The notes under the pieces are model-generated. The model was not told where the DNA came from, searched no databases, and saw nothing but the letters and a program-made list of their open reading frames with translations. A stretch of 32,000 nt of DNA, taken from NCBI GenBank assembly GCA_027925325.1, contig AP027133.1, positions 180,001 through 212,000 on the forward strand, written 5' to 3'. Shown here one piece after another: positions 4,493-29,632 of the stretch (position 1 is its first letter; the number at the start of each line of letters is the position of its first letter). The translations under genes and the position numbers were made by a program. This DNA comes from Candidatus Saccharimonadota bacterium (lineage in GTDB: Bacteria > Bacillota_I > Bacilli_A > Mycoplasmatales > Hepatoplasmataceae).

Positions 4493-6202
4493 ATGGAAAA
4501 AATAGATGAAGGGAATAAAAAATTAGATTCATTTTATAATGATTCTAATCTTTGAAAAACCTATTTTCGAATTAGTATCCCTGTAATAATTTTGATGCTT
4601 TCTACAGCAAGTTATTCTTTAATTGATTCAATTATCGCAACTGTTTATGTAGATGGCGAGACTTTCTTTGGTAGTGAAACTTTAAATGCTGCAGATGTTT
4701 TAAGTATCGTAACTCCTTTTGTCGTCTTCATGTTTACAATTTCTTATCTTTTTGTCGTCGGCGTCGGTTTATTTATGCCGATAGTATTAGGGAAAAAAGA
4801 TTTTAAAATTGCTCATAAAATAATCGGTGAAGGGATGTCGCTTTCGATTATTTTTGGATTACTAACAATTTTACTTTTTTATTTTTTAGCTGAGCCTTGG
4901 ATGAATTTTTTTGCAAAAAAAAATGATGGGATAACAGATGAGGCGATTAGTCAAGGGATAATTTATATGCAAATTACAACTCTTGCTGTTGCTTTTAATG
5001 GGGTAAGAGATGTAATTGTACGTGCATTAAGAGTTGAAGGAAAAAATATTCCTTCTGCCCTTATTCCAATTATTGCCCTTCCTGTTAATTTAGGATTTGA
5101 TGTTATTTTTATGAATCCTAATCTAGTTGGAATGGGATTAGAAGGAGCGGCCTATGCGACTGTAATTGGCGCTTTTGTTGGTGCTCTTGCCGGTATTTTA
5201 TATGCCGTTTATTTAAATTATAAAAGAGATACTTATATTAGTTTTAATTTAAGATATTGAACTCTTACTTGAACAATTTCGACAACGATTATGTTGTATG
5301 GATTTAGTTCTTTTTATTATCGGGCAACGATTATGTTTTTTATCTTATGATATGTTTATTTTTTAAATTTATTAGATGGACAATTAAAAGATGCCGGAAC
5401 AGTTGCTTCCTTTAATAAGTATTCGACCGCTTCTATTCAAACGATCTTTTTTGTAAATGCCGTCGCCTCCGGATTTGCTCAAGGAGGATCGGTTATCTTA
5501 GCTTATCATTATGGTAAGAAAAACTATGATATAGTTGATCGTGGTTTAAAAATTTCATTTATTTACAATATTTTAGCAGAAGGAATTGTTGTGATTTTTA
5601 TGCTTTCTTTTGCTCGTTATATTATGCAAGTTTATGATGTAAATATCTTTTCGCCAATCGATAATCCGCAACCAGATCAATTAAGTCTTTATGCTAATTA
5701 TTTTAGATTAACCGTTCTTGGATTACCTTTGGTTTTATTACAAACACCAGAAACAATGTTTTATGGCTTACGGAAGCAACCAAGAATCCTCGCAATTCAC
5801 TCCACGGTGGCAAATGTCCTTGTCGGGCCCTTCTTATTTTGAGTAATGTATCAAACGATTGATGTACAATCAGCAGCAACAAATCCTAATTTAATTTTTC
5901 CTTATTTCACATCAATGATTATAATAGGAATTGTTGAGCTTACGATTACTTCGCCATTTATGAGTTATTCATATTACACGATCGGCGATGAAAAAACGAC
6001 TCTTTTACAGTATTGAAAACATAAATTTATCAAGAAAGATTATCAAAACCCTTATTTTGATAATAATAATCATAAGTTTTGATCATTAGATTTTATTAAG
6101 AGTAAACCAGAACAAAATGATCCTGAAAATAAAAAAGGAGATAAATTAGAAAATAAGAAGATAGAGAAAAAAAATAACAATGATAAAAAACACAAAAAAT
6201 AA
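4493..6202 (+). CDS. MATE/MOP-family multidrug-type efflux transporter
   Basis: ATG at 4493 follows GAGAGGGAAA. Fragments 4592..5260 and 5591..5842 are in the same frame and are linked only by TGA codons. The protein is a long run of hydrophobic segments by eye. The stop is TAA at 6200-6202, after a Lys/Asn-rich tail. Confidence 0.65.
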
Positions 6203-7040
6203 ATCTGAAAAATTTAAATTACAAAAAAATAAAAAATATCTTTTCGCAACCGATTTAGATGGGACTTTTTTGACATCTTATCGTGATTCGATGCATGTCG
6301 ATAATTATCAAGCTGTAAAAATGATTAAACAACATCATTTTCCATTTGTTATTGCAACCGGAAGAAGTTGATGATGAGCAAAAAAAATTTATGATCAATT
6401 AGGACTTGTCGATGCTTCGATTCATTTTTCAGGTGCACAAATTCATAATGTTAATAATAATGCATTTAAAGTTAATTTTAATCATAAATTTATTGAAATT
6501 TACACTTATATTAAAAAAGAAGAGATTATTGAACTTGTAAAAGAAAATGATTTAATTACAAAAGTTGATTTTTTTAGTGTCGTTGGAAAAGAACATCAAG
6601 CTGAATTTTCGGAAATGGAAGATATTGACAAATTATTTTTTGATGCCTTTGAATTTGTATGTGTGATAAAAAATAATCCGCGCTATGCTAATAAATTATT
6701 TTTAGATTTAAAGAAAAAATATCAAAAAAGATTTGTGATCAAATATTGAGAACATCAAAAAATGCGCGAGATTGTTTTTTCGCCTCCTGAAACAGATAAG
6801 GCAATCGCCTTAAAATATGTTTTAAAACAATATAATATGACAGAGGATAATTTAATTTATTTTGGTGATAATATAAACGATATAGAAGCTTTAAAATTAG
6901 CAAAAATGAGTTATGTACCTAAAAATGGCAATAAAAAAGCATTAGAAGTGGCAAAAGAAGTTTTAGATAATACAAATGATCAGGGAGCTGTTGCCAAAAA
7001 AATTATTCAATTAATAAATGATTTAGATAATGAAAAGTAA
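6180..7040 (+). CDS. Cof-type HAD-superfamily phosphatase
   Basis: ORFs 6180..6371 and 6762..7040 share a frame. HAD motif I FATDLDGTF and motif IV GDNINDIEAL are present. The join runs through three consecutive TGA codons (6369-6377) and one more at 6747. Confidence 0.8.
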
Positions 7041-9212: not shown

Positions 9213-11249
9213 ATGAAAATATTATTAAATGAACTAAAAAAATTTGTTAATTTAGATGGTGTTTCAAATGAAACATTATTTAAATCTTTAAATTCTTTGG
9301 CTTACGAAGTTGAATATTTTCATAAAATTAATAATCTTAAAAATAAATCATTAATAAAATTAGCAAAAGTCCTTAATTGTAAAAAACATCCCAATGCTGA
9401 TCGATTATCTGTTTGCAATATTTTAACAGAAGATAAAGAATATCAAGTTGTTTGTGGAGCAAAAAATATTCAAGAAGGACAGACTGTAGCACATGCCCTT
9501 CCTGGTTCTATTGTTAATAATTTAAAATTGCAACAAAGAAAAATTCGTGGTATTTTATCAAATGGAATGATTCTTTCTTTACAAGAAATTTTAGATTTAA
9601 AAAAAGAAATTGTTGAAACAGAAGAAAAAGAAAATATTTTTGTTTTTGATAATCGAATTTCACTAAAAAATAATTTTTTTGATTTATTAAAGATAAATGA
9701 CTATTTAATTGATATCACAATTTTACCTGATCGTAATTATGCTAATTCTTATCAATTTCTCGCAAGAGAAATTGCTGCTTATTTGAATTTAAAATTTGTT
9801 GATGATGATAAGGATTTACTTTTAAATTTTAATCCGGAAATTAATTTAAAAACAAAATCAGAAGATTTAATTTTAACAGAGGATGCTGTTGCTTTTGCTA
9901 TTAGTAATGTTTTACTAAATAATAAAGGAAAAAATAAAACACCTTTTGAAATTAAACTAGTTCTTTATTTAAATGACATTAAACCACAAAATAACATCTT
10001 AGATTTAATTTTTTATTTTAAATTAATTTATGGATTATCAATTTATCCGATTAAAGAAAAAGATAAGTATTTTTTTGATGGAGAACTTATTAACGATAAA
10101 ATTAATATTTTTGAATCTGATCCCTTTAAAGATTTTGATCAATTTTCTGAAAAATTTAATTTGATTGCTTTTGCTAGTAAAAAGAAAAAAAATATTACTA
10201 TTGAAAAAAATATTAATCATTTTTTTGGCAAGCAAAATGCAAAAGGAACTGAATTTAGTCAAGTTTCTTTACTTGAATTATTTTTAATTTATGCTAAAAA
10301 ATATGACTATTTAAAATCATATTCAAATATTTTAGTAAAGAATTTACAGATGAATGATTATTCAAATCAAATTAAAACAATTTCACTTTCGGAAGATTAT
10401 TTAAAAAATTACGTTGGTGAAAAAATAAATTTAATTAATATTAATGAGAAATTAAAAATATTAGGATTTGATTATATTCAAGATAAACAAATCTGAAAAA
10501 TTCCTAATTATCGTTTTGATATAAATGCAAAACAAGATTTAATTGAGGAAATTATTCGATATTATGGAATTGAAAATATAGCTGGACAAAAATATCCGAT
10601 TGTAAAAGAATTTGTCAAAATTGAAAATAATAAATATTTTATTGAAAAAGTAACAAATTTATTGATTGGATATGGTTTTAATGAGGTTAAAAATACTTCT
10701 TTTATTAATCAAAAAGAATTTGATAAATATAATTTATGAGATATTAAAAATCCGATCTTACTTAGTAAAAGATATTCGATTGCCAATAATATTTTAAGAA
10801 ATTCCTTACTTAAGGGATTATTAAATAATCATAATTTAAATTATAAAAATGATTTTGAGGATATTCGGTTATTCGAGTTTGGTAATATTTATTTTTCAAC
10901 ACAAGAAAATGATTTTAAACTTGCTTTTGGCTTAATTTTTGATGACAAAATTAAATATGAACTAAAAACAGAGGATAAAAATCAACAAAAATCACCACTT
11001 TTGATCGGTGATAAGATTATAAAAGAGGTATTTAAGATTATCGGGCTAAAGACAGATTATAAATATCTTGTTTATAAAGAACTCACGACTAAAACAGATA
11101 TTTTTAATCAAAATCAAGCTGTTGAGGTTTATTATAATGGCGATTTGGTAGCCTATTTTGGTGAATTAAATCACAGCATTTTACGAGCTAATAAATATAT
11201 AAGATTAGATAAAATAAAGGCTCAGTTGTATTATTTAGAAATGATTTAG
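9213..11249 (+). CDS. pheT: phenylalanine--tRNA ligase beta subunit
   Basis: ORFs 9210..10496 and 11001..11249 share a frame and join through TGA codons. There is an N-terminal tRNA-binding domain (KHPNADRLSVCNI...VVCGAKN) and a B5-type segment WKIPNYRFDINAKQDLIEEIIRYYG. Confidence 0.9.
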
Positions 11250-11270
11250 CAAATTATTTACAAGTTTTTT

Positions 11271-11305
11271 CTCTTACTTTTTAAATTTTTTTGTAAGAGT
11301 TTTTA
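11271..11305 (+). terminator. candidate intrinsic terminator after pheT
   Basis: CTCTTAC (11271-11277) and GTAAGAG (11293-11299) form a perfect 7-bp inverted repeat followed by TTTTT. The loop is long at 15 nt. Confidence 0.4.
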
Positions 11306-11324
11306 ACTTTTTAGGATGGTAAAA

Positions 11325-12908
11325 ATGAAAATAAAAATCAAAAAATTTTTTATTGATGTTGAGTGAACATTTTTTTTAATAATTCTTTTTTCACTCCTGA
11401 TTCCATTTACTTATAAATTTATTCGTTATTTTTGATTATCAAAACAATCAATCGAAGATTTTTCTAATATTTTGGGGATTCTTTCAACTATTAATTTAGT
11501 TTTTGAGACAGCTACGGTTTTTTTAATTGTTCCTGTTTATTCTTTTGTAAATAAAAATATTAAAAATAAAGTCGAACAAAAGGAAAAATTTTTAATTTCC
11601 TTTGCAATTGTCTTTGTTACCCTTATTTTTATTAATTTAATAATGGCTGTTTGTGCCTATCCATATGTTATCTATGTACTAGATGGAGGAGCGCAGATGA
11701 ATCAATTAGCCTTTACATTTATCATAAGTTCGATTGGTTTTTCTTTCTTGTTATTTGATCATTTATTTATTGCTTTTTTGGTTTTAAAAAGAGATAAGAT
11801 GAGTGCTTTTTTACTTACATTTATTGGAATACTGATTCTTTTTCTTTCCGATTTTTTCTTGATATCAGGAATTTTTATTGAGAACCCAGATTATTTTATT
11901 CTTTCGATTTCTTTTTTATTGGGACCTTTAATTTATTTTGTTTTAATTTTTGGATGAGTTTTTATTAAAGAATTTAAAGAGTGAAAATTAGCTTTTAAAT
12001 CCTTTTCATTTAAAAAATGAAAAAAAGATTTAAAAATTTATAAAAAAACAAGTTTTTTTGTCGGAATTGAAACCTTAATTTGAAATTTACTTTGATTTTT
12101 AGGCGTTTCAATGCCTCTTTATATTGGCTTTGATGAACCCTATATCGAAACGGCTTTTATTTTAAGTGATGCGATGTTTTGGACAATTCTTACCGTTCCG
12201 CTAACGGCATTTACTTATCTGCAAGCAGAAAGGCACTCTCGTGTTTATGATTGAAAGGAACATAATTTTGTCTTATTTAATGGTTTTATTTTTGTCTTTT
12301 TAATCGGTATTAGTTGGCTAATTCTTGGTCCGATCTTGATATTTTTAATTTATCCTCATTATATTTCTGTTGATTATGCTTATGCAATTTCACATCTCTC
12401 TGATTTTGTTACCGTGAACGATTTATCTGGAGGAGTTGTAAATTCAATTGGAGTATTAGGTGATAATTATTATGATGTAGCCTACGGTTATTTAAGATCA
12501 TTTTGTTTAATTTTATTGCCATTTTTCTATATGATGCTTATTATTAGAGTTATTTATACTTATTGAGTATCGGTTGGAAATGCTTTTAAGACATTGATTG
12601 GAACGATAATTGGAGCAGGGGTTGTTTGAATTCCATCGACAATTATTTTTTCAACACTTGCAATAATTGGAATAGATTTTTCTCCTTATTTCCTTATTTT
12701 TATCTATGGTTTTGGTATTTTAGCGATGGCAATAAGTTATTCTTACCAATTGTATCTTGAAAATAAAACAGATCCTTCTTATTGAAAATGATATGAAAAG
12801 TTATTGGTAATCGATGAAAATAAATCTTTATTGGCAGCAGATGGAATCAGAATAAAGGAACAAGAATTATCGATAATTGATGAAAATAAGGGAGAATTAG
12901 AAAATTAA
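11325..12908 (+). CDS. polytopic membrane protein, MOP/MATE-like transporter candidate
   Basis: ATG at 11325 is in the same frame as ORFs 11472..11957 and 12336..12566. All gaps contain only TGA codons (I counted at least nine). The protein is highly hydrophobic throughout. The stop is TAA at 12906-12908. Confidence 0.55.
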
Positions 12909-16505: not shown

Positions 16506-17525
16506 ATGAATTTAGAAGATAATAAATTAAATTTTAATAAAGAAAAAGAAATTTATAATGAAGAATTACTGTTCCGTACGGTAGAAAAATATTTTGGCGC
16601 AGATAAATTATATTCATATAATTTAAGTTTTTTGGTAGGAAACGATTTTTTTAAACTGGTAGAAGGATATGATTATGAAGATTTTTATCAAAAATTAAAA
16701 AAAACAAAATCTTATCGTCGAAAAAAAACAACAATTAAAAATTTAGATAAATTATCAAAAAAAATCGGTGCAGAATTTGATATTAATTTTACAGAAGGAT
16801 TATTACAATTAAATAAAAAGAAAAAATATTTTGATTTCACAGATAAATCTCAGTTAATAAAAGAGCTTTATTATCCTTTTTTAAAGATTGTAAATAATTA
16901 TTTGGATAATAGTTTTCAAAGTGAAGTTAATATATTAACAATTGATTTTAGTAATTTTTTTGAGAATTTATTTACACCGAGCCGTTTTGAATTAAAAAAA
17001 TATAATTTTAATCAAGTGAATGAAGAAGAAGCAAATAAGAAAATAAATTTATATAAGATCTTTGGTGATATTGAAAATCCAAAAGAGATAAAATTACCAA
17101 AAGAATTTAAGAAAAATTATCTTCCCTTTTTTGCTTTTGATCAGTTGCGGATTTTTACAAATAAAATTAATCAGAAAAACTCAGTTCTTGTTGTCTTTGG
17201 TTATGATTTTTCCGATCAATATTTAAATAATTTAATTTTAAATTTAAAAAATAATCAAGCGATTAAAGTTTTGCTTTTGGTTGATAATAAAGATAAAAAT
17301 AAAGAGATAATTTATCAATTTTTACAATATCAAAAGATCTTTTTAATTAAATTCATCGATTATCAAGATAAGGATTATCTAATTAATTTAGAGAATATTT
17401 TATATTCAAAAATAGAATTGATGTTTAAAGCTTTAACAGATTTAAATCAAAAAAAAGATCAAGAGAAAATTAAGGGGAAGAAAAAAAATCTAACAAGAAA
17501 GGGAAAAAATAAAAAAAATGAATAA
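16506..17525 (+). CDS. SIR2-like (SIR2_2 / DHS-like fold) protein with substituted catalytic signature and a Lys-rich C-terminal tail
   Basis: Four segments occur in the order and spacing of SIR2_2 motifs. FLVGNDF (aa 42-48) corresponds to fhGAGxS. ILTIDFSNFFE (aa 143-153) corresponds to iiTTNYDnllE. LYKIFGDIENPKEIKLPKEF (aa 182-201) corresponds to KlHGs...p.ivlT..dY. VLVVFGYDFSD (aa 227-237) corresponds to lvflGYSl.D. The ORF is intact and its stop overlaps the next gene's ATG. The assignment was made by eye only. Confidence 0.45.
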   Translation: MNLEDNKLNFNKEKEIYNEELLFRTVEKYFGADKLYSYNLSFLVGNDFFKLVEGYDYEDFYQKLKKTKSYRRKKTTIKNLDKLSKKIGAEFDINFTEGLLQLNKKKKYFDFTDKSQLIKELYYPFLKIVNNYLDNSFQSEVNILTIDFSNFFENLFTPSRFELKKYNFNQVNEEEANKKINLYKIFGDIENPKEIKLPKEFKKNYLPFFAFDQLRIFTNKINQKNSVLVVFGYDFSDQYLNNLILNLKNNQAIKVLLLVDNKDKNKEIIYQFLQYQKIFLIKFIDYQDKDYLINLENILYSKIELMFKALTDLNQKKDQEKIKGKKKNLTRKGKNKKNE

Positions 17526-19431
17526 TTTTGATAATTATATTTTTGGCGTAATTGATTTTGCAAAAGGAAATGAAATTGTTGTAAAAAGCAATAAAGAAAA
17601 AATTTTACAGCGAAATTATATAATCGGTCTTGATCAACTTTTTCTTGCTCCTCGAATTGATCGATTCATCAAATTTTTATTCAATAATCAAATTTTTATT
17701 TATAAAATATTTCAAATTGAAGAAAACGAAAAAAATATCTTTTATCGTTGTTACTATGTTGGTAGATTAATAAATAATAAAGTTATTGAAAATGAAACTT
17801 TTATTGCAAAATTAAATGAAAAGGTTTCACTTATTTCAATTAAAGAATTAAAGCAATTTGATCAAAATTTTGCAAATGATCGATTAAGGATATTAAATAT
17901 CGCAAAAACCTTAGATACAGAAAATGAAATAGATTTAAATTTAAATTTCTTTTCATCTAATAATATTTTATTAGGAAAAAAAGGGAGTGGGAAAAGTAAT
18001 ACGATTAAGAATTTATATCTAGCTTTTTTTAATCAATACTTAAAAAGTTTTAATCAAAAATTTCATAAATTTATTTTCTTTGATTTAAAAAATCAATATC
18101 ATGCTTTTTTTGAAAATAATTTGAATTCTTCATTATTGCCACAATTAATTAAGGTTGATCTAAAAGAGCGTTTAGAACAAAGTGATGTTGCTTTTTTTAA
18201 TTTTAAAAAATTAAGCAAAAAAGAACTTGCCTTTATTTTTAATCTTTCAACAGAGGAAGAAAAAAAATTGCTTTATAATTTTTTAATTTGAATCGAAAAT
18301 TTAAAGCAAATTTCATTTATAAAAATTATCAATGAGGCAATTTTAATTGATCGTAGTTTTGAGATTGTTAAGGTCTTTTTATTAAAACTTTTAAAAATTT
18401 CAACAAAAGAACAAAATCTTAAATTTAATCATTATTTTATTATTTTGCAAGAAATTTTAAATAAATTATCTTTAGATAATAATTTATTTATCTTAAATGA
18501 TGCCTATGATCAATATTCTAATTTTATCGCTAAGGAAAAAAATAAAAATATAAATTACAAGAAAAAGGGTAATAATTTATATTTTGAAAAAGATCATTTT
18601 AATCTCTTTTTAGATTTAATTAAAGGAAAATATTTGAATTTAGAAAATGATAAGAATTTATTAGAACGATTTAATAATTTCATAAATTATGACTTTAATT
18701 CTTTATTAATTTTATTTCAATTGCAAACAATTATTGATAATGACAAATTAGATAATTTTATTCTTAATGAATTTATCGATAAATTAACATTAAAAAAAGA
18801 TAATGATAATTATTTAATTATCAAACATTTTGCTTTAAATTTAAAAGGGTATGAAAAACAAAATGACATTTTATCATCATTTGAAAAAAACAATTTAATT
18901 ATTTTAACATTTGATTATCTTTCAATAAAGGTAAAAAAGAGATTAATTTATCTTTTACTAAAATTATTAACGATTGAAAATTGCTTAGATTTACCAGAAG
19001 AAAAAAGATATTTAAATATTATTCTCGATGATTTTGATCACTTTTTTGAATTGTCACTTATTACAAAAAATCTTGATTTAATTTTATTTGAAAAATTGAT
19101 TTTACAAAAAGCAATTTATAAAACTTTTTTTACGATTGCTGTCGAAAATGTAAATTTATTACGCGAAAAAATCTTTGCTGATTTTGATAATTTCTTAATT
19201 CATCAAATTTTAGATCGGGAAGAATTAGAATTAACAACACATTATTTAAAAAATGTAAATGAACATCAATTAATGCAAACTTTTAAATTTAAAAATACGG
19301 AAGCAATTTTTTATGGAAAATCATTTAAAAGATTATATCCGGTTGAACTTCTAGATTTTTCTGAGAAAAAAGTAATCAATAATGAATCATCTAAGGTTAT
19401 TTTTGATATTTTAAATCAAAAAAGTCAGTAA
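17518..19431 (+). CDS. HerA/FtsK-like P-loop ATPase (637 aa)
   Basis: ORFs 17518..18291 and 18445..19431 share a frame and join through one TGA at 18289. The N-terminus is HAS-barrel-like (YIFGVIDFAKGNEIVVKS). Walker A is LLGKKGSGKSNTIKNL (17974-17997). The Walker B-like segment is YLNIILDDFDHFF (from 19021). The C-terminal pattern FTIAVENVN...NFLIHQILDREE...TEAIFYGKSF..YPVELLDF follows the HerA layout. Confidence 0.65.
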
Positions 19432-19528: not shown

Positions 19529-21220
19529 ATGAAAAAAAGCAGTATTTATATTTTATTTTTATCTTTATTTTTTCTATTTCTTGTTCCGTTTGTTATTTTA
19601 TTTTCAATAGATAATAAGCAAAATAAATTAACTGCTGAAGTTAATGCTAATTTTATTGACCAACATATTGAAAAAAGTTATCAATTTGATGAAGGTGATG
19701 CAGCTGCTGTTACTAGAGATCAAGATGGCTATGATCATCTTTATATGTGGGGAGATAATAGTCACTATCAATTAGGTTTAAATTATCAAACCGCTTATTT
19801 TCCTGATTCAAGCGATTTAAATCTTACAGCAAAAAATTATTATTATTATCCGCAGGAGGTAGCAATTACAAAAGATAACAAAGGGATGATTGATGATTTA
19901 AAATCAACAAAATTTAATACAATTGTCTCTTTTATTGATCAAGATGGTAATTATCATCTTTATATATATGGATCAAATGTAAATGGACTATTAACAAAAG
20001 ATCAATTATATTTAAATTCATCAGATCCAATTATTATTGATATTCCAACTAATTTAAAAATTGAAGATCTTGCGCTTACCGATGATAATGTTTATCTTTT
20101 ATTAAAAGAAAAAAGTGGAAAGAAGCAATATCTTTATAGTTGGGGATTAAATATTAATGGTCAATTGGGATTAGGATTTAATGATAATTTTATTCATAAA
20201 ACTCCTAATGTATCAAAATATATAAATGGTTTAAGTACAGATGATTATGAAATAGAACAAATCTATGCCCAAAATGATGCCTTATATTTAGTTACGAAAA
20301 ATAAAAATGAAGATGATGATTTTGAAACAATTTATACTTTAGGATCAAATCACGATGAACAATTAGCGATTACTGGGTTAGATTATGATGATAATATTTT
20401 AATTCCAACTGAAATTCCTTATTTTGAAGAAATTAAAGCTAATAATATCTATCTTGATGGCAATAATCATTATGGAATTTATGCGCAATATCAATTATTA
20501 AATCAGACCTATTTGGTTAGTTGAGGTAATAATAGAAATAATCAATTGGTTAACATTAATCAAAATATAATCAATCAACCAACAGGCGTCTTTGCTGATC
20601 AAATTGGTGATAGTGGTGAACCTATTTATGATCCGCAAGAAAAAGATTTATTATTTTCTAATTATGGTTATGAACAATCTTTTTTAATTTATCAATATCA
20701 AGATCAATATCAACTTTATGGTTGAGGATTAAATAATCACTATAGTTTAGGAATATCTGATAATCAGATTCATAATACTGAACCTATTGCTATCAAGAGT
20801 ATCAATAATCAAAATTATCAAGTAAAAGGATTATCAACCGGTAGTCATAGCAGTAGTCTTATAATAGAAGATCAAGATAACAATCAAAGTTTATACACAT
20901 GAGGATATAATCAAACCGGACAATTAGGAAATGGAGAAGAAGCATCATTTACTGCAGAACAAAATACCACTTTTTATCTTTCTTTACAAACTTACATTGT
21001 AAAAGAAAGTAGTAATAATTATTATAAATTGCCTCTTGCTATTTTTATTGTAATAGTAATTTTATTATTATTAGTTCTTATCACTTTATATATCAGCGTT
21101 AAGAGATATAAAGTCCTTGAGGCTAAAAAAAAGCAAACAGGACAACAACAAAATGAAGTTTTGAATCAAGAATTAACAGCAGAATTAACAACACAAAATT
21201 TAGATTTGAATGTAGATTAA
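19529..21220 (+). CDS. membrane-anchored RCC1-like 7-blade beta-propeller protein
   Basis: ATG at 19529 gives MKKSSIYILFLSLFFLFLVPFVILFS, a signal peptide or signal anchor. There are seven [LY]Y.WG.N..GQLG-type blades: HLYMWGDNSHYQLG, HLYIYGSNVNGLL, YLYSWGLNINGQLGLG, IYTLGSNHDEQLA, LVSWGNNRNNQLV, LYGWGLNNHYSLG and LYTWGYNQTGQLGNG. Three blade Trp residues are TGA-encoded. A C-terminal TM segment LPLAIFIVIVILLLLVLITLYI is followed by a short charged tail. Confidence 0.75.
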
Positions 21221-23982: not shown

Positions 23983-24714
23983 ATGAAATTTAATTTTGCT
24001 GGAAGAACAGTTAAGGGAGTACGGGTTGAAAATCAAGATAACTATACTGTTTTTTTAGCAAAAAATAAATCTTATTTCGTTGCTGCGATCGCTGATGGGA
24101 TGGGTGGATATCGTGGCGGTAAATTAGCATCAGAGGTAACGATAAATTTTATTGAAAGAGATTTTAAGGATCTTAATTTAGAGTATAAAACAGATAATGA
24201 TATCTTTAATTTGATGATTAAAGAGATTAGATTGATTCAATTAAAATTGATTAATTTAGTAAAAAAAGAAAATGCTCCCTTCAATATGGGAACAACAATT
24301 AATTTCAATTTAATTTATAAAAATAAGATATATACTTTAAATATTGGTGATACAAGATCAACAAATTATTATCAAAAAGAGTTAAAAGATATCTCAGAAG
24401 ATCATAATTTAGCAGCACTTGCCAAAAAAAATAAGTCTTTTCGCAAGTATTATAAATATACAAATTATCTTACTTCTGCCCTTGGGCCAAAAAAAGAATC
24501 AATATTAGATATTTTTATAACAAATATCAAACAAAAAGGGATTTTAATTGTTGCATCAGATGGGATTCATAATTTTGTAAAAACAAAAGAATTATTAAAA
24601 ATTTTAAAGACAGATATTTCACTTTCCAAAAAAGTTGATAAGATTATTTCTAGAGCTATGAAGAATCAATCAAATGATAATATGACATGTGTCTTGGTGG
24701 AGTATGGAGTTTAA
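23983..24714 (+). CDS. prpC: PP2C-family Ser/Thr protein phosphatase
   Basis: Motifs NQDN, ADGMGGYRGG, GDTR, ASDGI and DNMTCVLV are present. It lies immediately upstream of, and overlaps, the kinase gene. Confidence 0.85.
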   Translation: MKFNFAGRTVKGVRVENQDNYTVFLAKNKSYFVAAIADGMGGYRGGKLASEVTINFIERDFKDLNLEYKTDNDIFNLMIKEIRLIQLKLINLVKKENAPFNMGTTINFNLIYKNKIYTLNIGDTRSTNYYQKELKDISEDHNLAALAKKNKSFRKYYKYTNYLTSALGPKKESILDIFITNIKQKGILIVASDGIHNFVKTKELLKILKTDISLSKKVDKIISRAMKNQSNDNMTCVLVEYGV

Positions 24715-25726
24715 ATCAAATGTAATTATTAATAATAAATATAAAATTGTTTCGGAAATTGGAAAGGGAGCTTCTGCTGTTGTCTATCTTGGATATGACT
24801 TACTAAATAATAAAAATGTTGCTTTAAAAATTCAAAATCAAAAAGATGAATTTTCTAATATGGATAAAAGATTTAAATTAGAGGCAAATACTTTGCTTAA
24901 TTTAAATCACCAAAATATCGTCGATACATATGATTACTTTACTTGAAATAATCGTCGTGTGATTGTAATGGAATATTTAGATGGGAAAACACTTGAGAAA
25001 TATATTAGAGAAAAGCAATATCTTTCTTCAAAAGAAGTTGCAACCTTTGCAATTGAAATTTTGGAAGGATTAGATCATGTTCATCAAAATGGAATTATGC
25101 ATCGTGATCTCAAACCAGCTAATATTACGATTACCGTTGATAATAAACTCAAATTAATGGATTTTGGTATTATTCAAACTTCAATTAATCAAGAATTAAC
25201 AAGGCAGGCAAGCATCATTGGAACGATCCAATATTTAGCACCTGAGATATTTAAAGGTGAAAAATCTTCTCCTCCTTCAGAAATGTTTTCAATTGGGGTA
25301 TTACTTTATCGAATGTCAACCGGAGTTTTACCATTTAAGGGAATATCACACGAAGATACAGCGAAGAAAATTTTAAATGATGATCCGTTACCACCAACAA
25401 ATATTAATAAGATGCTTGATTTAGAATTAGAAAAGATAATTTTAAAGTTATTGCAAAAAGATTATTATAATCGTTACCAAACGGCGCGCGAGACGATCAA
25501 TGCTCTTAAGGATTATTTAATAAACCGGGAGCAATATAAAATCAATCAATCAACGAAATTTCTGCAAGATAGGCAAGTTATCGAAAATAATAATCAGACC
25601 TTATCAAAGAGTAAACAAAAAATAAAAAAGAAAAAAGCAAAAGAAATTAAATTAATAAATTATTTGCTTTTTTTTATTGTAATTTTTTTAATATTAGCAC
25701 TTATTATGATTCCTATTTTTATTTAA
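24704..25726 (+). CDS. prkC: Hanks-type Ser/Thr protein kinase, C-terminally membrane-anchored
   Basis: ORFs 24689..24946 and 24959..25726 share a frame and join through TGA at 24944. ATG at 24704 is the likely start. Motifs GKGASAVVY, VALK, HRDLKPAN, DFG and APE are present. A single C-terminal TM segment (LLFFIVIFLILALIMIPIFI) ends at the stop codon. Confidence 0.88.
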
Positions 25727-25798: not shown

Positions 25799-26212
25799 AT
25801 GAATAAAAATAGAAAATTAAATTTTAATCTAGAGTATCAGAAATTTTTTAAAACTCCCAATTGGGAGTTAATAGAAATTTTATATTCAAGAAATAAATAT
25901 AGCATTTTAAGAGAAGATCATATAGCAATTAAAATTAATACTAGAAAAAGAAAATTAGAATTTTTACAAATTTATTTATATTTACAAATTGTAAAAAATG
26001 GCAATATTAATCCAATTGAGATTATTGAAGTATATGATAATTTTTCCGATTATATTGATTCGATTTTATCTAAAAATATTGATGAAAAACATAAAAATGA
26101 TTTTGAAATAAAAATAATTAATTTAATTTTATGCTTAAGAAATATTAATACAAAAATTTCTTCTATATTGTATTCTTATATATTTTCATTTGAAAAAACA
26201 TTAATTATTTAA
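25799..26212 (+). CDS. hypothetical protein (137 aa), first ORF of the accessory island
   Basis: The ORF is intact with an ATG start, and TATAAT lies at 25779-25784. I see no recognisable motif. Its 3' end overlaps the open frame of the next ORF. Confidence 0.4.
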   Translation: MNKNRKLNFNLEYQKFFKTPNWELIEILYSRNKYSILREDHIAIKINTRKRKLEFLQIYLYLQIVKNGNINPIEIIEVYDNFSDYIDSILSKNIDEKHKNDFEIKIINLILCLRNINTKISSILYSYIFSFEKTLII

Positions 26213-26889
26213 TAAATCATAAATTTATAAGTAATAATTTAAATATTTTAGAAATTATTTCTCATAATAAAAAGATTGAAATTTCAAAAAATAAAATTAA
26301 AAATTTACAAGAAAAAGATTATATAATTACGGAAAAAAATCTTTTTGTTAAAAATGCAAAAATTATGGAAGAATTATATTTTAAAGAAAAGATATCAATA
26401 TTAAAATATCTGCAAAATGAAAAATTTTTAACTTTACAAGATTTGATAAAAAGAAAATTTATTAGTTCAGGGAAAATAAAGGAAAGAGAAAATTTTTTTA
26501 GAAAAAAAGGTTTTAGTGAAGAGGGAATAAAAAATGGAATATGAAATTATTTTATAGAAAGATTACAAAAAACTAGTGATTTGAGAAATAAAATATCTCA
26601 TCTTGATAATTTAATTATTAAAAAAAATGATTCCGAGGATTTATTAAATTATTTTTATGGTCAGTTCGATCTCTTAAGAAATGATTATACAATAGAAATT
26701 TTTTATAAGATTAAATTAATTTTTTTGAAAAATAATTTAATATCTAGAAATGATATTTTAAGAAATCATTATGAAGATTTCTTTGCTTTTAAAATGAAAA
26801 AGAACAAAAATAATAAAAATGAACAATTCTTAAAAGAAAGAATTGTTCAAGATAAACATACAAATTTGTCTTTAAATTCACACAACTAA
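26149..26889 (+). CDS. HEPN-motif (RNxxxH) protein, Abi-like candidate; start codon unresolved, possibly frameshifted from the upstream ORF
   Basis: Read with code 4, this frame is open from 26149 to TAA at 26887-26889 through two TGA codons. The track shows only 26581..26889. R-N-K-I-S-H lies at 26584-26601, in the context WNYFIERLQKTSDLRNKISHLDNL. The first in-frame ATG is at 26365. The region upstream of that ATG reads like winged-helix segments (LNILEIISHNKKIEISKNKIKNLQEKDYII). Confidence 0.4.
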
Positions 26890-26940
26890 ATGTGCTACAG
26901 TAAAGGATTTATGTTCCTTCACACAACTAAATGTGCTACA
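26877..26940. repeat. perfect 23-nt direct repeat x2 (TTCACACAACTAAATGTGCTACA) separated by an 18-nt unique spacer
   Basis: Copy 1 is 26877-26899 and copy 2 is 26918-26940, identical at 23/23 positions. The spacer GTAAAGGATTTATGTTCC is 26900-26917, giving a 41-nt period. Copy 1 contains the stop codon of the HEPN-motif ORF. Confidence 0.9.
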
Positions 26941-27020
26941 TATCTATTATATATAAATTTTATTTTAAAAATAAAATATTTAAAAAATTAGATAAAATTA
27001 TCATAATTTTACTATTAACT

Positions 27021-27040
27021 TATAATTATTTTAAAAGGAG
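27021..27040 (+). promoter_or_regulatory. candidate -10 box plus strong Shine-Dalgarno for the hidden propeller gene
   Basis: TATAAT is at 27021-27026. AAGGAG is at 27035-27040, 6 nt before ATG at 27047. Confidence 0.4.
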
Positions 27041-27046
27041 AATTAA

Positions 27047-28414
27047 ATGAAGAAATATTATGGAATTTTATTAATTCCACTACTAGGAATAATTCCTATT
27101 AATAAAAATATAATTAACAAAGATAATACTAATTTTGAAGGACAGAATGGTGTAATTATTGATATTTCAGCGCAAGAGACCTGAACAGGAGCAATATTAG
27201 ATTCAGATTTAGATGGATATGGTGATTTTGTTTATATTTGGGGTAATTTTAATTCAGAACCAACAAAATTTGATTTTGCTTGAAATGGCAATTTGATTAA
27301 TTTAGAATTAGGCTCATATTTATCTGCAGGAGTTACGGTTGATATCGATTATGATGGATATGCTGATACTTTATATATGTGAGGAAATAATCAACATGCG
27401 CAATTAGGAAATGGAACTTATGGAAATTATGATTTAAATGATCCAATTAAAATAACTCCCGAAGGACAGGATAATTGAAATGGTAATATTATTGATTTAT
27501 CATTAGGTAGTTATAATACATCAGTTATTATTGATACCGATTATGATGGATATGCCGATACATTTTATTCATGAGGAGATAATATCGGAGGGGAAAATGG
27601 TAATGGTCAAAATGGACTTAATACAGAAGGAGAAGATCAATATGTTTTATATCCTCAAGAAATAGCTCCAGAAGGAAGAGGGGGTTGAAATGGTAATATT
27701 ATCGATCTTGATTTAGACTCAATTACCTCTGCTGCAACTGTTGATGGAAATTATGATGGATATTCCGATACCTTATATATGTGAGGAACCGGTGTTTATA
27801 ATTATTATGGACATGGTCCTGTTTTATATCCAACAAAAATAATCCCAGAAAGAGAAGATGATTGAAGAGGAGATATTGTTGATTTTGATACAGATTATCA
27901 TAATACAGGGGTTGTTGTAGATACAAATTATGATCATATCGGTGATACTCTATATATTTGAGGTTATGCAAGTGAAGGTCAAATTGGGAATGGATATTTT
28001 GAAGATACTAGAGAAAATTTTCCGATTCAAAATACCTTTTTTGTTGATAAAAATATTATAAATCTTGAAATTAAAGATGATGCCCTTGCTGTTTCAACCG
28101 ATGAGAATTTAGATGGTTATGCCGATACCCTTTATATGTGAGGATATAACAATAAAGGTCAACTTGGTGATGAAACAACGATAAGTAAAAGCACACCAAC
28201 AAAAATAATTCCCGATCAAAAAGATAATTGAGGCGGAAACATTATCGATGTATCATTAGGTGGAAGAGATTCAATGGTTTTAACCGATCAAAATAGTGAT
28301 AATTTAGGAGATACAATTTATATGTGGGGTGATAATCAGTTTTATCAATTAGGATTTTTATCAGAAGATGAAATCGTTTCAACTCCCTATCAAATAATTA
28401 CAACAATTTTTTAA
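27047..28414 (+). CDS. secreted 7-blade beta-propeller protein, RCC1-like with a DxDxDG-type loop in every blade (455 aa)
   Basis: No + strand ORF appears in the track because 12 in-frame TGA codons break it. Read with TGA=Trp, the frame is open from ATG at 27047 to TAA at 28412-28414. The N-terminus is MKKYYGILLIPLLGIIP. Seven repeats follow the pattern W.G.IIDL.LG...(D.[DN].D[GHN]..D)TLY.WG.N..GQLGNG. TGA falls at the conserved blade Trp positions. Confidence 0.8.
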
Positions 28415-28560
28415 TATTTTGATAATTTTAAATATATAAGATAAAATTAATTTGTTTGTCTTAAATATTATCTTTATTATTTTATAATACTTACATTGTA
28501 GTTATTTGAATTTAGTTTAAATAATGGATAAATAGATAATAGAATAGAAAGAAGTAAAAA

Positions 28561-28860
28561 ATGAATAAAAAATACAGTCCTTATCTTGGTCCCTTGCAAG
28601 GGACTGAAATTTTAAAAAAGTCACCTTTTGAAGTAGAGGATGATGATGGAAAATATAAAATAATTAAATGCAATTGTGGATCAACTGAATTTAAAAAAAC
28701 AAAAAATTATTATGGTGATAATGAACTTTCTTGTGAATACAATATATATTGTATTAAATGTAATAAAAGAATATGATTTCGTGATGATGATAATACCATC
28801 GGAGGAAAAGAAGATCATAGATTTTTTTATAAAGAAACAGTAGAATATAAGAAAGTTTAA
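28561..28860 (+). CDS. small zinc-ribbon protein (99 aa), hypothetical
   Basis: ORF 28561..28776 continues through TGA at 28774 to TAA at 28858-28860. Cys pairs C-N-C and C-I-K-C lie about 27 aa apart. An AGAAAGAAG purine tract precedes the ATG. Confidence 0.5.
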
Positions 28861-28878
28861 TAAATTTTTTATATCTAG

Positions 28879-28904
28879 AAATTTATTAATTCTTTAATAA
28901 ATTT
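28879..28904 (+). terminator. AT-only hairpin, weak candidate terminator closing the island
   Basis: AAATTTATTAA (28879-28889) and TTAATAAATTT (28894-28904) form a perfect 11-bp inverted repeat with a TTCT loop. T-rich sequence follows. The stem has no G:C pairs. Confidence 0.3.
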
Positions 28905-28986
28905 ATTTCTTTGAATTATTTTATTTAAAAATAAAGAAGAAATTTTTAAGAAATTAAAAATAATTCAAATTTCATTTTTTTTATAA

Positions 28987-28995
28987 TGTTATAAT
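28987..28995 (+). promoter_or_regulatory. extended -10 promoter (TGtTATAAT) for the rpmF operon
   Basis: TG is at 28987-28988 and TATAAT at 28990-28995. It lies about 53 nt upstream of the rpmF ATG, which is preceded by AAAGGAG. Confidence 0.4.
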
Positions 28996-29048
28996 TTATT
29001 GAAAACTTTTATTATTTATTAAGTTATTTTATAAAGGAGTAGTAGATT

Positions 29049-29234
29049 ATGGCGATTCCATTTCGTAGAACATCAAAAACACGTAAAGCTAAAAGACGTA
29101 CACATCAAAAAGCAAAAACTCCCACAATGATTCAATGTTCAAATTGTGGTGCATCAATTAAACCACATACTGTTTGTAAAGAGTGTGGTTATTATAATGG
29201 CAAAAAGATTCTTGATGTTAAAAATAAAAACTAA
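29049..29234 (+). CDS. rpmF: 50S ribosomal protein L32
   Basis: The sequence [19 protein letters not shown]... with CxxC...CxxC is the canonical zinc-ribbon form of L32. Confidence 0.95.
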
Positions 29235-29632
29235 TGAGTACAAAATTTGATCATTTAAATCGAGAACAAAAAATATATTTTATTTATAAACAATTTCTTC
29301 TTGCAAAATCTAAAGATGAGATGATAGAGGATTTACATCAAAATTTTATTGAATATAATTTTTCGGAACAAGAAGAACATGATATTTTAAAAATCATCGA
29401 AGATTTTGATGATTTAAAAGCAAAGGTAGAAAAAGCCCTACCGAGTGATTGAAAATGAACAAGGATTAATAATTTAGAAAAGGCAATTTTAATTTACACT
29501 GTTGCTGAAATAGTTATTTTTAAGCAAAAAAAGGCAATCGCTATCGATAATGCGATTAGATATGCTAAAAAATATTGTGACTTAAAAACTTATCGATTAT
29601 TAAATTTAATTCTTGATAAAGTTGAAATATAA
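29234..29632 (+). CDS. nusB: NusB-like transcription antitermination factor
   Basis: ORF 29234..29452 continues through two TGA codons to TAA at 29630-29632. The C-terminal half (WKWTRINNLEKAILIYTVAEIVIF...AIDNAIRYAKKY...LLNLILDKV) follows the NusB pattern (r....e.aiLr.a.yEl....inEaielak.y....fvNgvLd). Its start overlaps the rpmF stop (TAATG). Confidence 0.6.

Follow-up and report, generated by a model that had tools for sequence, protein, structure and literature searches.

The window analysed here, a 32,000-nucleotide stretch of DNA, originates from Candidatus Hepatoplasma scabrum, a woodlouse symbiont belonging to the Mollicutes, with a tiny genome that is read in genetic code 4. A reduced genome of 606 kb has been reported for Ca. 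Hepatoplasma (PMC10928387), the bacterium itself being uncultivated. Open reading frames were called with code 4; table 11 breaks up the neighbouring genes. On the forward strand, a gene for a SIR2-like protein of 339 residues (16506-17525; HPPSJP_1880, BDV03467.1), recognised by ORF calling and the Pfam SIR2_2 profile and free of in-frame TGA codons, is followed immediately and in the same orientation by a gene for a HerA-like protein of 637 residues (17518-19431), recognised by ORF calling, PADLOC HerA models, hhalign and BLASTP. The second gene contains one TGA-Trp codon (residue 258, nucleotides 18289-18291). At the junction between them (17498-17525, forward strand), a Shine-Dalgarno-like AAAGGGA (17498-17504) precedes the HerA-like ATG at 17518, so that the HerA-like start overlaps the end of the SIR2-like gene, stop codon included, by 8 nt. 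The conservation of this junction in three genomes suggests that the two genes are translationally coupled. Synteny of the pair is perfect across the same number of genomes, where it is flanked by nfo and a gene for an RCC1-like surface protein, with housekeeping genes around it and outside any defence island. Scans of the window returned 59 promoter-like sites, below the 66.7 expected, and no terminator, and neither tRNAs nor Rfam families were detected in it.

Judging from its sequence, the product of the first gene is a true SIR2_2 protein. The Pfam profile (PF13289) is matched at 38.7 bits against a cut-off of 24.5 bits, with residues 143-277 aligned to positions 3-137 of the profile's 141. 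PADLOC contributes eleven SIR2 models, which fall on the C-terminal half of the protein, mainly over residues 199-283 and in a few cases to about residue 332, and the NCBIfam SIR2_antiphage model (NF042942) gives 21.6 bits, below its 500-bit cut-off. When the PDB was searched with the family profile, the only matches were SIR2 chains of SIR2-HerA complexes (E-values of 3.5e-15 for 8yhx, 8.8e-14 for 8w9l and 1.8e-9 for 8j4u); the single sequence gave a weak C-terminal match to 8w9l only (E 0.032). The AF2 model is of low confidence (pLDDT 46.6, pTM 0.52), as the tiny family limits the depth of the alignment, and its strand order fits a SIR2/Rossmann fold. Foldseek searches with this low-confidence model filled the top 29 positions with SIR2 chains from SIR2-HerA complexes (E-values down to 4e-8, TM 0.35-0.51), with DSR2 ranked after them, and the matches to characterised SIR2 proteins share 13-16% identity. 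The motif FGYDFSD (G-Y/F-x-x-x-D; residues 231-237, 17196-17216, forward strand), listed as retained in the initial annotation, is indeed kept in the alignment of relatives, where G232 and D237 are invariant in all eight aligned sequences.

Within this scaffold, the positions associated with NAD+ binding and cleavage have been replaced. MAFFT alignments place the sequence G45-N-D-F-F49 (16638-16652, forward strand), preceded by a strand at residues 39-44 in the low-confidence AF2 model, under the GSG/GAG of intact relatives, as the remnant of a Gly-rich NAD-phosphate loop that reads G-[SA]-G-x-[ST] in those proteins. Further along the forward strand, BLASTP and the PDB-profile alignment show T145-I-D147-F-S149 (16938-16952) in place of T-x-N-Y-D and K184-I-F186-G187 (17055-17066) in place of K-x-H-G. 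D147 thereby falls in the column of the catalytic Asn (PsSIR2 N163, SaSir2 N226) and F186 in that of the catalytic His (PsSIR2 H212, SaSir2 H287), and S149 lies in the column of PsSIR2 D165, the Asp of TNYD, which makes it a fourth lost residue. Mutants of the N and mutants of the H are both devoid of activity in the FAM118 sirtuins. The catalytic N, D and H have been defined experimentally in PsSIR2 and SaSir2, with the inactive SaSir2 mutant H287A lying behind the structure determination (PMC11472057, PMC11514289). All of these substitutions are invariant in the ten full-length Hepatoplasma variants. None of the ten carries a conserved His; nine have no His whatsoever and the tenth has two, at the variable positions 113 and 329.

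The register of this alignment had initially been set by eye, with GNDFF at residues 45-49, TIDFS at Asp147 and KIFG at Phe186, and the residues are found exactly there. Four independent results (BLASTP, MAFFT, the PDB profile and the absence of His) confirm it. Against the Ca. Tyloplasma litorale protein (BLASTP E 5e-18), the closest intact relative, NILT-ID-FSNF aligns on NILT-PN-YDNF and INLYK-IF-GDIEN on INLFK-PH-GDIEN, and the register is fixed by the identity of the flanks around GSGIS, TPNYD and KPHGD in that protein. The family profile likewise puts the D147/S149 columns on PsSIR2 N163/D165 and the F186 column on H212. One supporting argument has nonetheless fallen away, since the 39-residue spacing between Asp147 and Phe186, taken at first as support for the register by comparison with ThsA, is coincidental: the corresponding Asn and His are 49-64 residues apart in intact relatives, and the Hepatoplasma protein has undergone a deletion of about 13 residues between the two positions. 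It could be argued, from the weak AF2 model and from the mere 13-16% identity to characterised SIR2 proteins in the fold matches, that the genuine Asn/His pair, like the Gly loop, is found at other positions and that NADase activity persists, or that the fold is NurA-like. This is extremely improbable, as a hidden Asn/His pair was looked for and not found, each substitution has the same flanking residues as in the intact protein of Tyloplasma, no His is conserved, and the Pfam, PADLOC, PDB-profile and Foldseek searches all led to the SIR2 of SIR2-HerA and none to NurA. With sister homology, profile alignment, fold search and lack of His in agreement, the earlier prediction of a pseudo-enzyme in which the Gly-rich loop, the catalytic Asn and the catalytic His have all been replaced is supported, and canonical NADase chemistry is very unlikely.

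The HerA-like partner has been altered in a comparable manner. Its family assignment comes from two PADLOC HerA models (E-values of 7.6e-6 and 2.4e-4) and from alignment to the Tyloplasma HerA, which hhalign covers with 92.5% probability over the N-terminal 200 residues only; the register of the C-terminus was taken from BLASTP (E 6e-6) and a small local HMM (3e-8). Pfam DUF87 was not matched in this protein, and its profile retrieved no HerA from the PDB. The N-terminal barrel, the P-loop Lys and both the nucleotide and Mg2+ aspartates are kept, and the barrel is the domain on which SIR2 docks in solved complexes. Walker A is also retained in the alignment as GKKGSGKS (17974-17997, forward strand), reading GKK[GD]SGK[ST] across three genomes. 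Walker B is degenerate, with IILDDFDH (19018-19041, forward strand) instead of IILDEAHN in the invariant columns of the MAFFT alignment, so that the catalytic Glu, at the position of Sulfolobus islandicus HerA E356, is replaced by D505. Downstream on the same strand, LQKAIYK (19102-19122; BLASTP and local HMM) replaces REGRKF, with A532 in the place of the trans-acting arginine finger (R381 in S. islandicus), a position held by Ala in the window and by Glu in two orthologues, and AVENVNL (19138-19158) replaces in the alignments the conserved HerA/FtsK sensor motif SSQRPSD. The initial annotation spoke of a partner ATPase with an intact Walker A and overlooked its degeneracy; as a premise of an intact ATPase this is only half right, since Walker B has lost its Glu and neither the arginine finger nor the QRP sensor is left. 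Studies on S. islandicus HerA have shown that R381K abolishes ATPase activity, and that E356D leaves about one fifth of the activity and fails in vivo (PMC4351679). By analogy with such E-to-D mutants, which keep partial ATPase, the HerA-like partner may not be fully dead; most likely, it binds ATP with weak hydrolysis at best. On the evidence of these motifs, both subunits are degenerate, rather than a dead effector being joined to a live motor.

Despite these losses, both genes have been maintained. Among three closely related lineages, separated by a dS of 0.6-0.9, the dN/dS of the SIR2-like gene is 0.14-0.26 (bootstrap CI 0.09-0.38) and that of the HerA-like gene 0.17-0.28 (bootstrap CIs below 0.4), values on par with those of the neighbouring housekeeping genes purA, nfo and pheS. 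Synonymous codon differences are present at the invariant motif residues. In three genomes both reading frames run uninterrupted over their full length, as the SIR2-like frame does in ten full-length variants. It might be supposed that the shrinking genome is shedding a defence system and that the substitutions represent early pseudogenisation, considering the reduction to 606 kb (PMC10928387), the loss of catalytic residues in both genes, the apparent lack of an orthologue in Ca. H. vulgare and a frameshift on one metagenome contig. The frameshifted contig is only 1.9 kb long, however, and the frameshift is probably an assembly error; the reading frames are otherwise undisrupted, the overlap between the genes is conserved, and omega lies far from 1, with confidence intervals to match, at a considerable dS. 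AT-biased reduced genomes delete neutral DNA quickly. A decaying relic is therefore very improbable. Since the genes appear to be coupled and are under purifying selection at the level of housekeeping genes, they are in all likelihood expressed and functional as proteins.

Selection is strongest in the former active-site blocks of the SIR2-like protein, which are 95% invariant with an omega of 0.02-0.06, and this degree of constraint, beyond structural need, could point to a cryptic enzyme in which the remodelled pocket (D147, S149, F186, GNDFF and their invariant neighbours) accommodates a new ligand or reaction. Within the pocket, Asp147 and further acidic or polar residues that are conserved could serve such a different ligand or chemistry. 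The blocks in question nevertheless form the strands of the Rossmann core, where conservation is always highest, and an Asp with two Phe in the loop, together with the change of His to Phe, would fill and acidify the dinucleotide site. Cys, Trp and a conserved His are absent from the protein, and no new conserved His/Cys/Lys cluster is evident, which leaves a cryptic enzyme a distinctly improbable explanation.

The distribution of the pair is narrow. No orthologue was detected in Ca. H. vulgare in any protein search, and the SIR2-like/HerA-like pair may thus be dispensable within the genus. A large-database search with a five-sequence alignment returned no additional relatives, and scans of genomes and metagenomes recovered the Tyloplasma locus already known and otherwise added only one further fragment from Hepatoplasma and a distant match in Companilactobacillus. 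There is no sign of an origin as a mobile or phage-encoded decoy, as tblastn against phages and plasmids gave no match.

The SIR2-like protein has also shifted markedly in charge, with a pI of 9.3 and a net charge of +13 to +15, compared to pI values of 5.5 and 6.9 in intact relatives. The gain, of about 18-20 positive charges, is localised to the small domain and the C-terminal tail. The small domain, a helical insertion spanning residues 50-138, has a net charge of +8, against -2 and 0 in intact relatives, and the alignment shows within it a conserved basic stretch, KLKKTKSYRRKKTTIK (16692-16739, forward strand). The unusual Lys-rich C-terminus pointed out in the initial annotation is real: residues 316-339 (17451-17522, forward strand) hold 12 K/R in 24 residues by composition, the highest K/R content among the 31 ORF tails in the window and a level reached by 0.04% of 24-residue windows, and such a tail is absent from intact relatives. 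Its composition is kept in three orthologues (11-12 K/R), with a fast-evolving sequence. The codons of its conserved KGK (AAAGGGA, 17498-17504) are the likely ribosome-binding site of the overlapping HerA-like gene, and part of the conservation of the tail may reflect that role. The proteins encoded in the window are generally basic (median pI of about 9.2), and one other ORF has a similar Lys-rich tail. An explanation of the tail as mere composition has been rejected in part, the tail being an outlier and yet not without a similar case in the window. Considering the basic proteome and the overlap with the ribosome-binding site, the evidence for nucleic-acid binding by the SIR2-like protein is only suggestive.

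On a cautious weighing of these results, the pair is probably a degenerate SIR2-HerA descendant, repurposed as a non-catalytic complex and possibly binding nucleic acids. The lineage of Ca. Hepatoplasma crinochetorum/scabrum would have kept the descendant of an anti-phage SIR2-HerA module of two genes. In this descendant, the SIR2-like subunit would have kept the Rossmann scaffold and lost canonical NAD+ cleavage, because neither the Gly-rich loop nor any of the three catalytic residues (Asn, Asp, His) is left, and is probably devoid of canonical NAD+ binding as well; the HerA-like subunit would bind ATP with little or no turnover. The subunits may still assemble into a SIR2-ring/HerA-ring complex that would act without catalysis, its likeliest role being that of a nucleotide-gated nucleic-acid-binding scaffold or a sequestering module. 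An assembly of the 12:6 SIR2:HerA kind is indirectly favoured by the conserved gene overlap and by the HerA barrel domain still being present. Binding of nucleic acid is proposed because of the positive charges gained by the SIR2-like subunit in its small domain and tail, and a scaffold, sensor or nucleic-acid-binding role is consistent with both the purifying selection and this gain. A bolder version, put forward tentatively and rather less probable, holds that an abortive-infection module has been domesticated into an ATP- and nucleic-acid-binding ring with both enzymatic centres erased and the remodelled NAD pocket under selection for a new binding role, serving a cellular function, for instance the binding of DNA ends or of the nucleoid, or the non-abortive sequestration of invading nucleic acid. 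If true, it would be the first case on record of a SIR2-HerA defence system exapted as a pair of pseudo-enzymes, and this in a symbiont with a near-minimal genome.

An immune function could also have been conserved in the form of a sensor-only module, which would recognise a component of the invader, such as a phage protein or DNA ends, and either block it sterically or signal to an effector encoded elsewhere. The ancestry of the pair in a defence module, the orthologous Tyloplasma pair lying in a restriction-modification island and the strong selection on both subunits agree with this, as do the CRISPR-Cas9 systems which Hepatoplasma genomes keep, and which indicate that mobile elements are faced (PMC10928387). 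Phage proteins and DNA ends are, moreover, triggers of known SIR2-HerA systems (PMC13434337). The Hepatoplasma pair has left the defence island, however, to lie between nfo and the RCC1-like surface protein, no candidate effector is adjacent, and the searches of these Hepatoplasma genomes did not reveal an active SIR2 alongside it. The dN/dS at housekeeping level also lacks the diversifying selection typical of immune sensors, and a sensor-only module is accordingly considered unlikely.

The repurposed complex would thus represent a natural SIR2-HerA system whose NADase and ATPase centres have been erased, yet which purifying selection holds at the level seen in housekeeping genes, within a genome of some 600 kb. 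In print, the defence systems listed for these genomes are restriction-modification and CRISPR only, and the pair was overlooked (PMC10928387). Annotation of defence systems by homology would call the locus SIR2-HerA, and functional NAD-depleting defences would thereby be over-counted. From the selection acting on a catalytically degenerate pair, it can be argued that the SIR2-ring/HerA-ring architecture may have a selectable function independent of catalysis, and both subunits probably serve a new, non-enzymatic job. The pair can in this sense be regarded as a candidate natural separation-of-function variant, bearing on what the assembly does besides the destruction of NAD+, and the intact sister system in Ca. 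Tyloplasma litorale makes a direct paired comparison possible.

Among known systems, the SIR2-HerA (Nezha) modules (Escherichia coli 8su9 and 8j4u; Paenibacillus sp. 453MF 8w9l and 8wld; Staphylococcus aureus 8yhx) have the same two-gene order, SIR2_2 followed by a HerA-family P-loop protein, and share with the Hepatoplasma pair the G-Y/F-x-x-x-D motif, the C-terminal half of the SIR2 domain, the HerA barrel and Walker A. These modules are regarded as abortive-infection machines, and their defence requires four activities together: NADase, ATPase, helicase and nickase. Catalytic mutations in either protein abolish defence (PMC11472057). When compared to them, the Hepatoplasma SIR2-like protein has no Gly-rich loop or Asn/Asp/His and is basic with a Lys-rich tail, the HerA-like protein has no Walker B Glu, arginine finger or QRP motif, and the locus lies outside a defence island. 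ThsA of Thoeris, DSR2 and vertebrate FAM118 have a SIR2_2-type Rossmann fold in common with the SIR2-like protein but all require the Asn and His, neither of which it retains (for DSR2, H171A appears in the title of a PDB entry), and their partner domains (SLOG, or MID/CTD) are different. The archaeal DNA-end resection machine HerA-NurA (S. solfataricus HerA, 4d2i) combines a barrel with a RecA-like core and serves as the reference for K154, D176, E356 and R381; the Hepatoplasma pair has no NurA nuclease and no equivalents of E356 and R381, both of which are needed if S. islandicus HerA is to work in vivo (PMC4351679).

The closest relatives outside Hepatoplasma, in a search covering 1.8 billion representative proteins, are TYPL_3800 of Ca. 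Tyloplasma litorale with the HerA downstream of it (AP027078.1), and a code-4 contig from SRR32062212. Ca. Tyloplasma belongs to the same family as Hepatoplasma (Hepatoplasmataceae). Both pairs have the overlapping two-gene layout, 33-35% identity and motif flanks identical to those of Hepatoplasma, and keep the GSG, TPNYD, KPHGD, ILDEAH, REGRK and SQRPS that Hepatoplasma has lost. Their Asn-His spacing is 52-53 residues, compared to 39 in Hepatoplasma, and their SIR2 is acidic to neutral. The Tyloplasma pair is located between two restriction-modification systems, whereas that of Hepatoplasma sits among housekeeping genes. In the Logan contig, SIR2 likewise adjoins a DUF87 HerA, with canonical motifs. 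Since the Tyloplasma and Logan-contig pairs both have canonical motifs, the ancestral pair is taken to have been intact.

With a G+C content of about 24%, the window contains housekeeping ORFs that are interrupted by TGA when read with table 11; its ORFs were re-called with code 4, giving a dense array of nearly all co-directional genes. The SIR2-like gene, SIR2L (16506-17525, + strand), is a 339 aa ORF without in-frame TGA, its product matching HPPSJP_1880 (BDV03467.1) from Candidatus Hepatoplasma scabrum Ps-JP with 100% identity. This Mollicute, whose genome measures 606 kb, lives in symbiosis with the woodlouse Porcellio scaber (PMC10928387). SIR2L overlaps by 8 nt the gene of a HerA-like partner, HerAL (17518-19431, +; 637 aa with one TGA read as Trp). 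Both this overlap and the synteny purB-purA-nfo-SIR2L-HerAL-RCC1-like-DEAD helicase are fully kept in Ca. H. crinochetorum Ps and Tokyo2021.

The initial annotation described SIR2L as substituted at three signature sites, and each residue that it cited was found at its position. The protein matches the Pfam SIR2_2 profile (aa 143-277 against profile positions 3-137; 38.7 bits, threshold 24.5), with PADLOC SIR2 models matching its C-terminal half. A HMMER search of all 1.84 billion representative proteins returned only five matches, the nearest outside Hepatoplasma being TYPL_3800 of Candidatus Tyloplasma litorale, of the same family, whose motifs are canonical (GSGIS, TPNYD and KPHGD). BLASTP against this protein (E 5e-18) places NILT-ID-FSNF on NILT-PN-YDNF and INLYK-IF-GDIEN on INLFK-PH-GDIEN, the motif flanks being identical and the differences confined to functional residues, while multiple alignments set GNDFF under GSG or GAG. 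A profile built from the eight relatives found just three distinct significant sequences in the PDB, all of them SIR2 subunits of SIR2-HerA complexes: 8yhx (Staphylococcus aureus, 3.5e-15), 8w9l (Paenibacillus, 8.8e-14) and 8j4u (Escherichia coli, 1.8e-9). In the 8w9l alignment, with numbering checked, D147, S149 and F186 of SIR2L occupy the columns of N163, D165 and H212, the putative catalytic residues of the Paenibacillus protein (PMC11472057); the S. aureus enzyme uses N226 and H287, and its H287A variant is catalytically inactive (PMC11514289). The Asp of TNYD has also been lost (S149), a fourth change beyond those initially listed.

An AlphaFold2 model of SIR2L was poor (pLDDT 46.6, pTM 0.52), with the three sites coming right after strands 39-44, 140-145 and 179-184. 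In a Foldseek search with this model, each of the best 29 matches was a SIR2 chain from a SIR2-HerA complex; DSR2 came next, and no NurA-type fold was among the matches. Nine of ten Hepatoplasma SIR2L variants lack histidine altogether and the tenth has two, both in variable positions, so that no other register can supply a catalytic His. These lines of evidence agree on the substitutions, neither a hidden Asn/His pair with a Gly loop nor a NurA-like fold having been found, and a misalignment is scarcely credible. The Asn-His spacing had been likened to that of ThsA (40 aa) in support of the register, a resemblance that proves coincidental, given that intact relatives have 49-64 aa and the 39 aa of SIR2L result from a deletion of about 13 aa. 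Judging from its residues, SIR2L is very likely to lack canonical NADase activity.

The pair had been pictured as a dead effector with an intact ATPase, a view that calls for revision. HerAL matches PADLOC HerA models weakly. Its N-terminal 200 aa, covering the barrel and Walker A, align with Tyloplasma HerA (hhalign probability 92.5%), and its C-terminal register was set by BLASTP (aa 523-630, E 6e-6) and a small local HMM (aa 519-604, E 3e-8). The HerA of Tyloplasma and that of another intact pair, encoded by a code-4 contig of SRR32062212, strongly match solved HerAs (4d2i, 6.7e-25, and HerA chains of SIR2-HerA complexes), whereas a profile of Hepatoplasma HerAL matched no solved HerA in the PDB. 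In Sulfolobus islandicus HerA the critical residues are K154, D176, E356 and R381; R381K abolishes ATPase activity, and E356D leaves about one fifth of it and does not support function in vivo (PMC4351679). HerAL keeps Walker A (GKKGSGKS, with K159) and Asp189, the equivalents of K154 and D176, while E356 is replaced by D505 (IILDDFDH under IILDEAHN in MAFFT) and R381 by A532, or by Glu in the other two genomes. LQKAIY stands where intact HerA has REGRKF, and AVENVNL where it has SSQRPSD; the Walker B Glu, the Arg and SQRPS are all gone. Compared with the S. islandicus critical set, HerAL probably binds nucleotide with little or no turnover, and by sequence both members of the pair are degenerate.

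Nonetheless, the pair is not decaying. Under code 4, Nei-Gojobori dN/dS among the window genes and the orthologues from Ca. H. crinochetorum Ps and Tokyo2021 was 0.14-0.26 for SIR2L and 0.17-0.28 for HerAL, indistinguishable from purA, nfo, pheS and gmk of the same window, with all bootstrap 95% intervals below 0.4. Since dS was 0.6-0.9, decay would have had ample time. The former active-site blocks of SIR2L (aa 41-60, 141-160 and 181-240) are 90-95% invariant (omega 0.02-0.06), their invariant motif residues show synonymous codon differences, and the four motifs are kept in 10/10 full-length variants from public assemblies. Purifying selection thus acts on both genes, and a decaying relic is highly improbable. 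A further Hepatoplasma copy, on metagenome contig JACCDS010156460.1, retains purA-nfo-SIR2L synteny and carries a frameshift at about aa 128, after NPFLKI, with the remainder in another frame and TIDFS intact; as the contig is only 1.9 kb, the shift probably stems from a mistake in assembly or at a homopolymer and not from pseudogenisation.

The intact Tyloplasma SIR2 and HerA genes overlap by 17 nt and have a DpnII-type restriction-modification system on one side and an MjaI-type one on the other, a typical defence island. In the same locus (from AP027078.1; positions are those on the excised stretch L003), the HerA (10944-12833) bears a six-fold tandem NSKLKE repeat in a helical-bundle insertion, and the pair is preceded, at a distance of about 3 kb, by a PnuC-type NMN transporter gene (5860-6885). 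The HerA of the SRR32062212 pair has Pfam DUF87. In the simplest history, Hepatoplasmataceae would once have had an active SIR2-HerA module, both catalytic centres having been lost on the branch to H. crinochetorum and H. scabrum, where SIR2L would also have acquired an insert of about 19 aa behind the former Gly loop, together with its basic tail, and the pair would have become fixed amid housekeeping genes. Protein searches gave no SIR2L orthologue from Ca. H. vulgare (Av-JP, AP027131.1), the fourth described Hepatoplasma species, and did return sister-MAG proteins from the same study; the pair may consequently be absent there. A scan of species-representative genomes gave one other match, in Companilactobacillus bobalius (NZ_MYFM01000005.1, 4001-4225), a distant SIR2_2 C-terminal region with 30% identity over aa 186-258.

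The neighbourhood has further features. Directly 3' of HerAL in 3/3 genomes lies the 19529-21220 (+) gene, the fastest-evolving of the neighbourhood (56-63% identity, dN/dS 0.34-0.54), encoding an acidic repeat protein (pI 4.45) with a hydrophobic segment at both termini and RCC1/WD40_RLD Pfam matches in its orthologues; its fast evolution would suit a role at the surface or in host interaction. The 27047-28414 (+) product (pI 4.05) resembles it in visible GxNxxGQLG-type repeats and acidity. PP2C phosphatase and Ser/Thr kinase genes (23983-25726, +) overlap by 41 nt (24674-24714), and an antisense ORF within the kinase gene (24934-25218, -) is probably spurious. Downstream, 25799-29632 carries ORFs of 137, 174, 455, 99 and 132 aa, unlike the single 241-aa or 403-aa ORF of the two H. 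crinochetorum loci, and over 26001-27000 the G+C content is down to 16.7%. The region may be variable or stem from a lineage-specific insertion.

The Lys-rich tail noted initially is a true outlier, with 12 K/R in 24 aa, the most basic of 31 ORF tails in the window; among 24-aa segments of the window's proteins, only 0.04% are equally basic. Its composition is kept (11-12 K/R in all three orthologues), and its sequence evolves fast (dN 0.42-0.49). The invariant KGK is encoded by AAAGGGA, which, lying 14 nt upstream of the HerAL ATG, probably doubles as its ribosome-binding site. SIR2L has shifted in charge to a pI of 9.3 (net +13 to +15, against pI 5.5-6.9 and net -5 to 0 in intact relatives), with gains of +8 in the helical small domain and +9 in the tail. 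The 4493-6202 (+) ORF ends in a comparable tail (NKKGDKLENKKIEKKNNNDKKHKK, 11 K/R in 24 aa), which makes such tails rare, not unique, in the window proteome.

As HerAL retains the barrel, the SIR2-docking domain of solved complexes (PMC11472057), the two proteins probably still assemble. HerAL would bind ATP without efficient hydrolysis, and the complex would work through binding instead of catalysis, most plausibly of nucleic acid, although as the selected function this is suggested only tentatively. A sensor-only immune role is unlikely, and less likely still is that the former SIR2L pocket cryptically serves another ligand or chemistry, a reading which the strong constraint on that pocket would favour.

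Ancestry and architecture place the locus with SIR2-HerA (Nezha) systems, yet the defining catalytic features are absent in both proteins, and SIR2L scores 21.6 against the 500-bit NCBIfam equivalog threshold. The label of a functional NAD-depleting defence system should be withheld from it. As defence genes, the genome paper names restriction-modification and CRISPR-Cas9 systems alone, leaving this locus unmentioned (PMC10928387). In the literature searched, whose coverage is incomplete, no naturally dead SIR2-HerA pair was found to be reported. Pseudo-enzymes and inactivated defence modules are established concepts, so that such a pair does not constitute a new category. That a near-minimal genome keeps a pair with both catalytic centres lost under constraint of housekeeping strength is nonetheless notable to specialists, and having an intact system to set against the dead one makes the question accessible to experiment.
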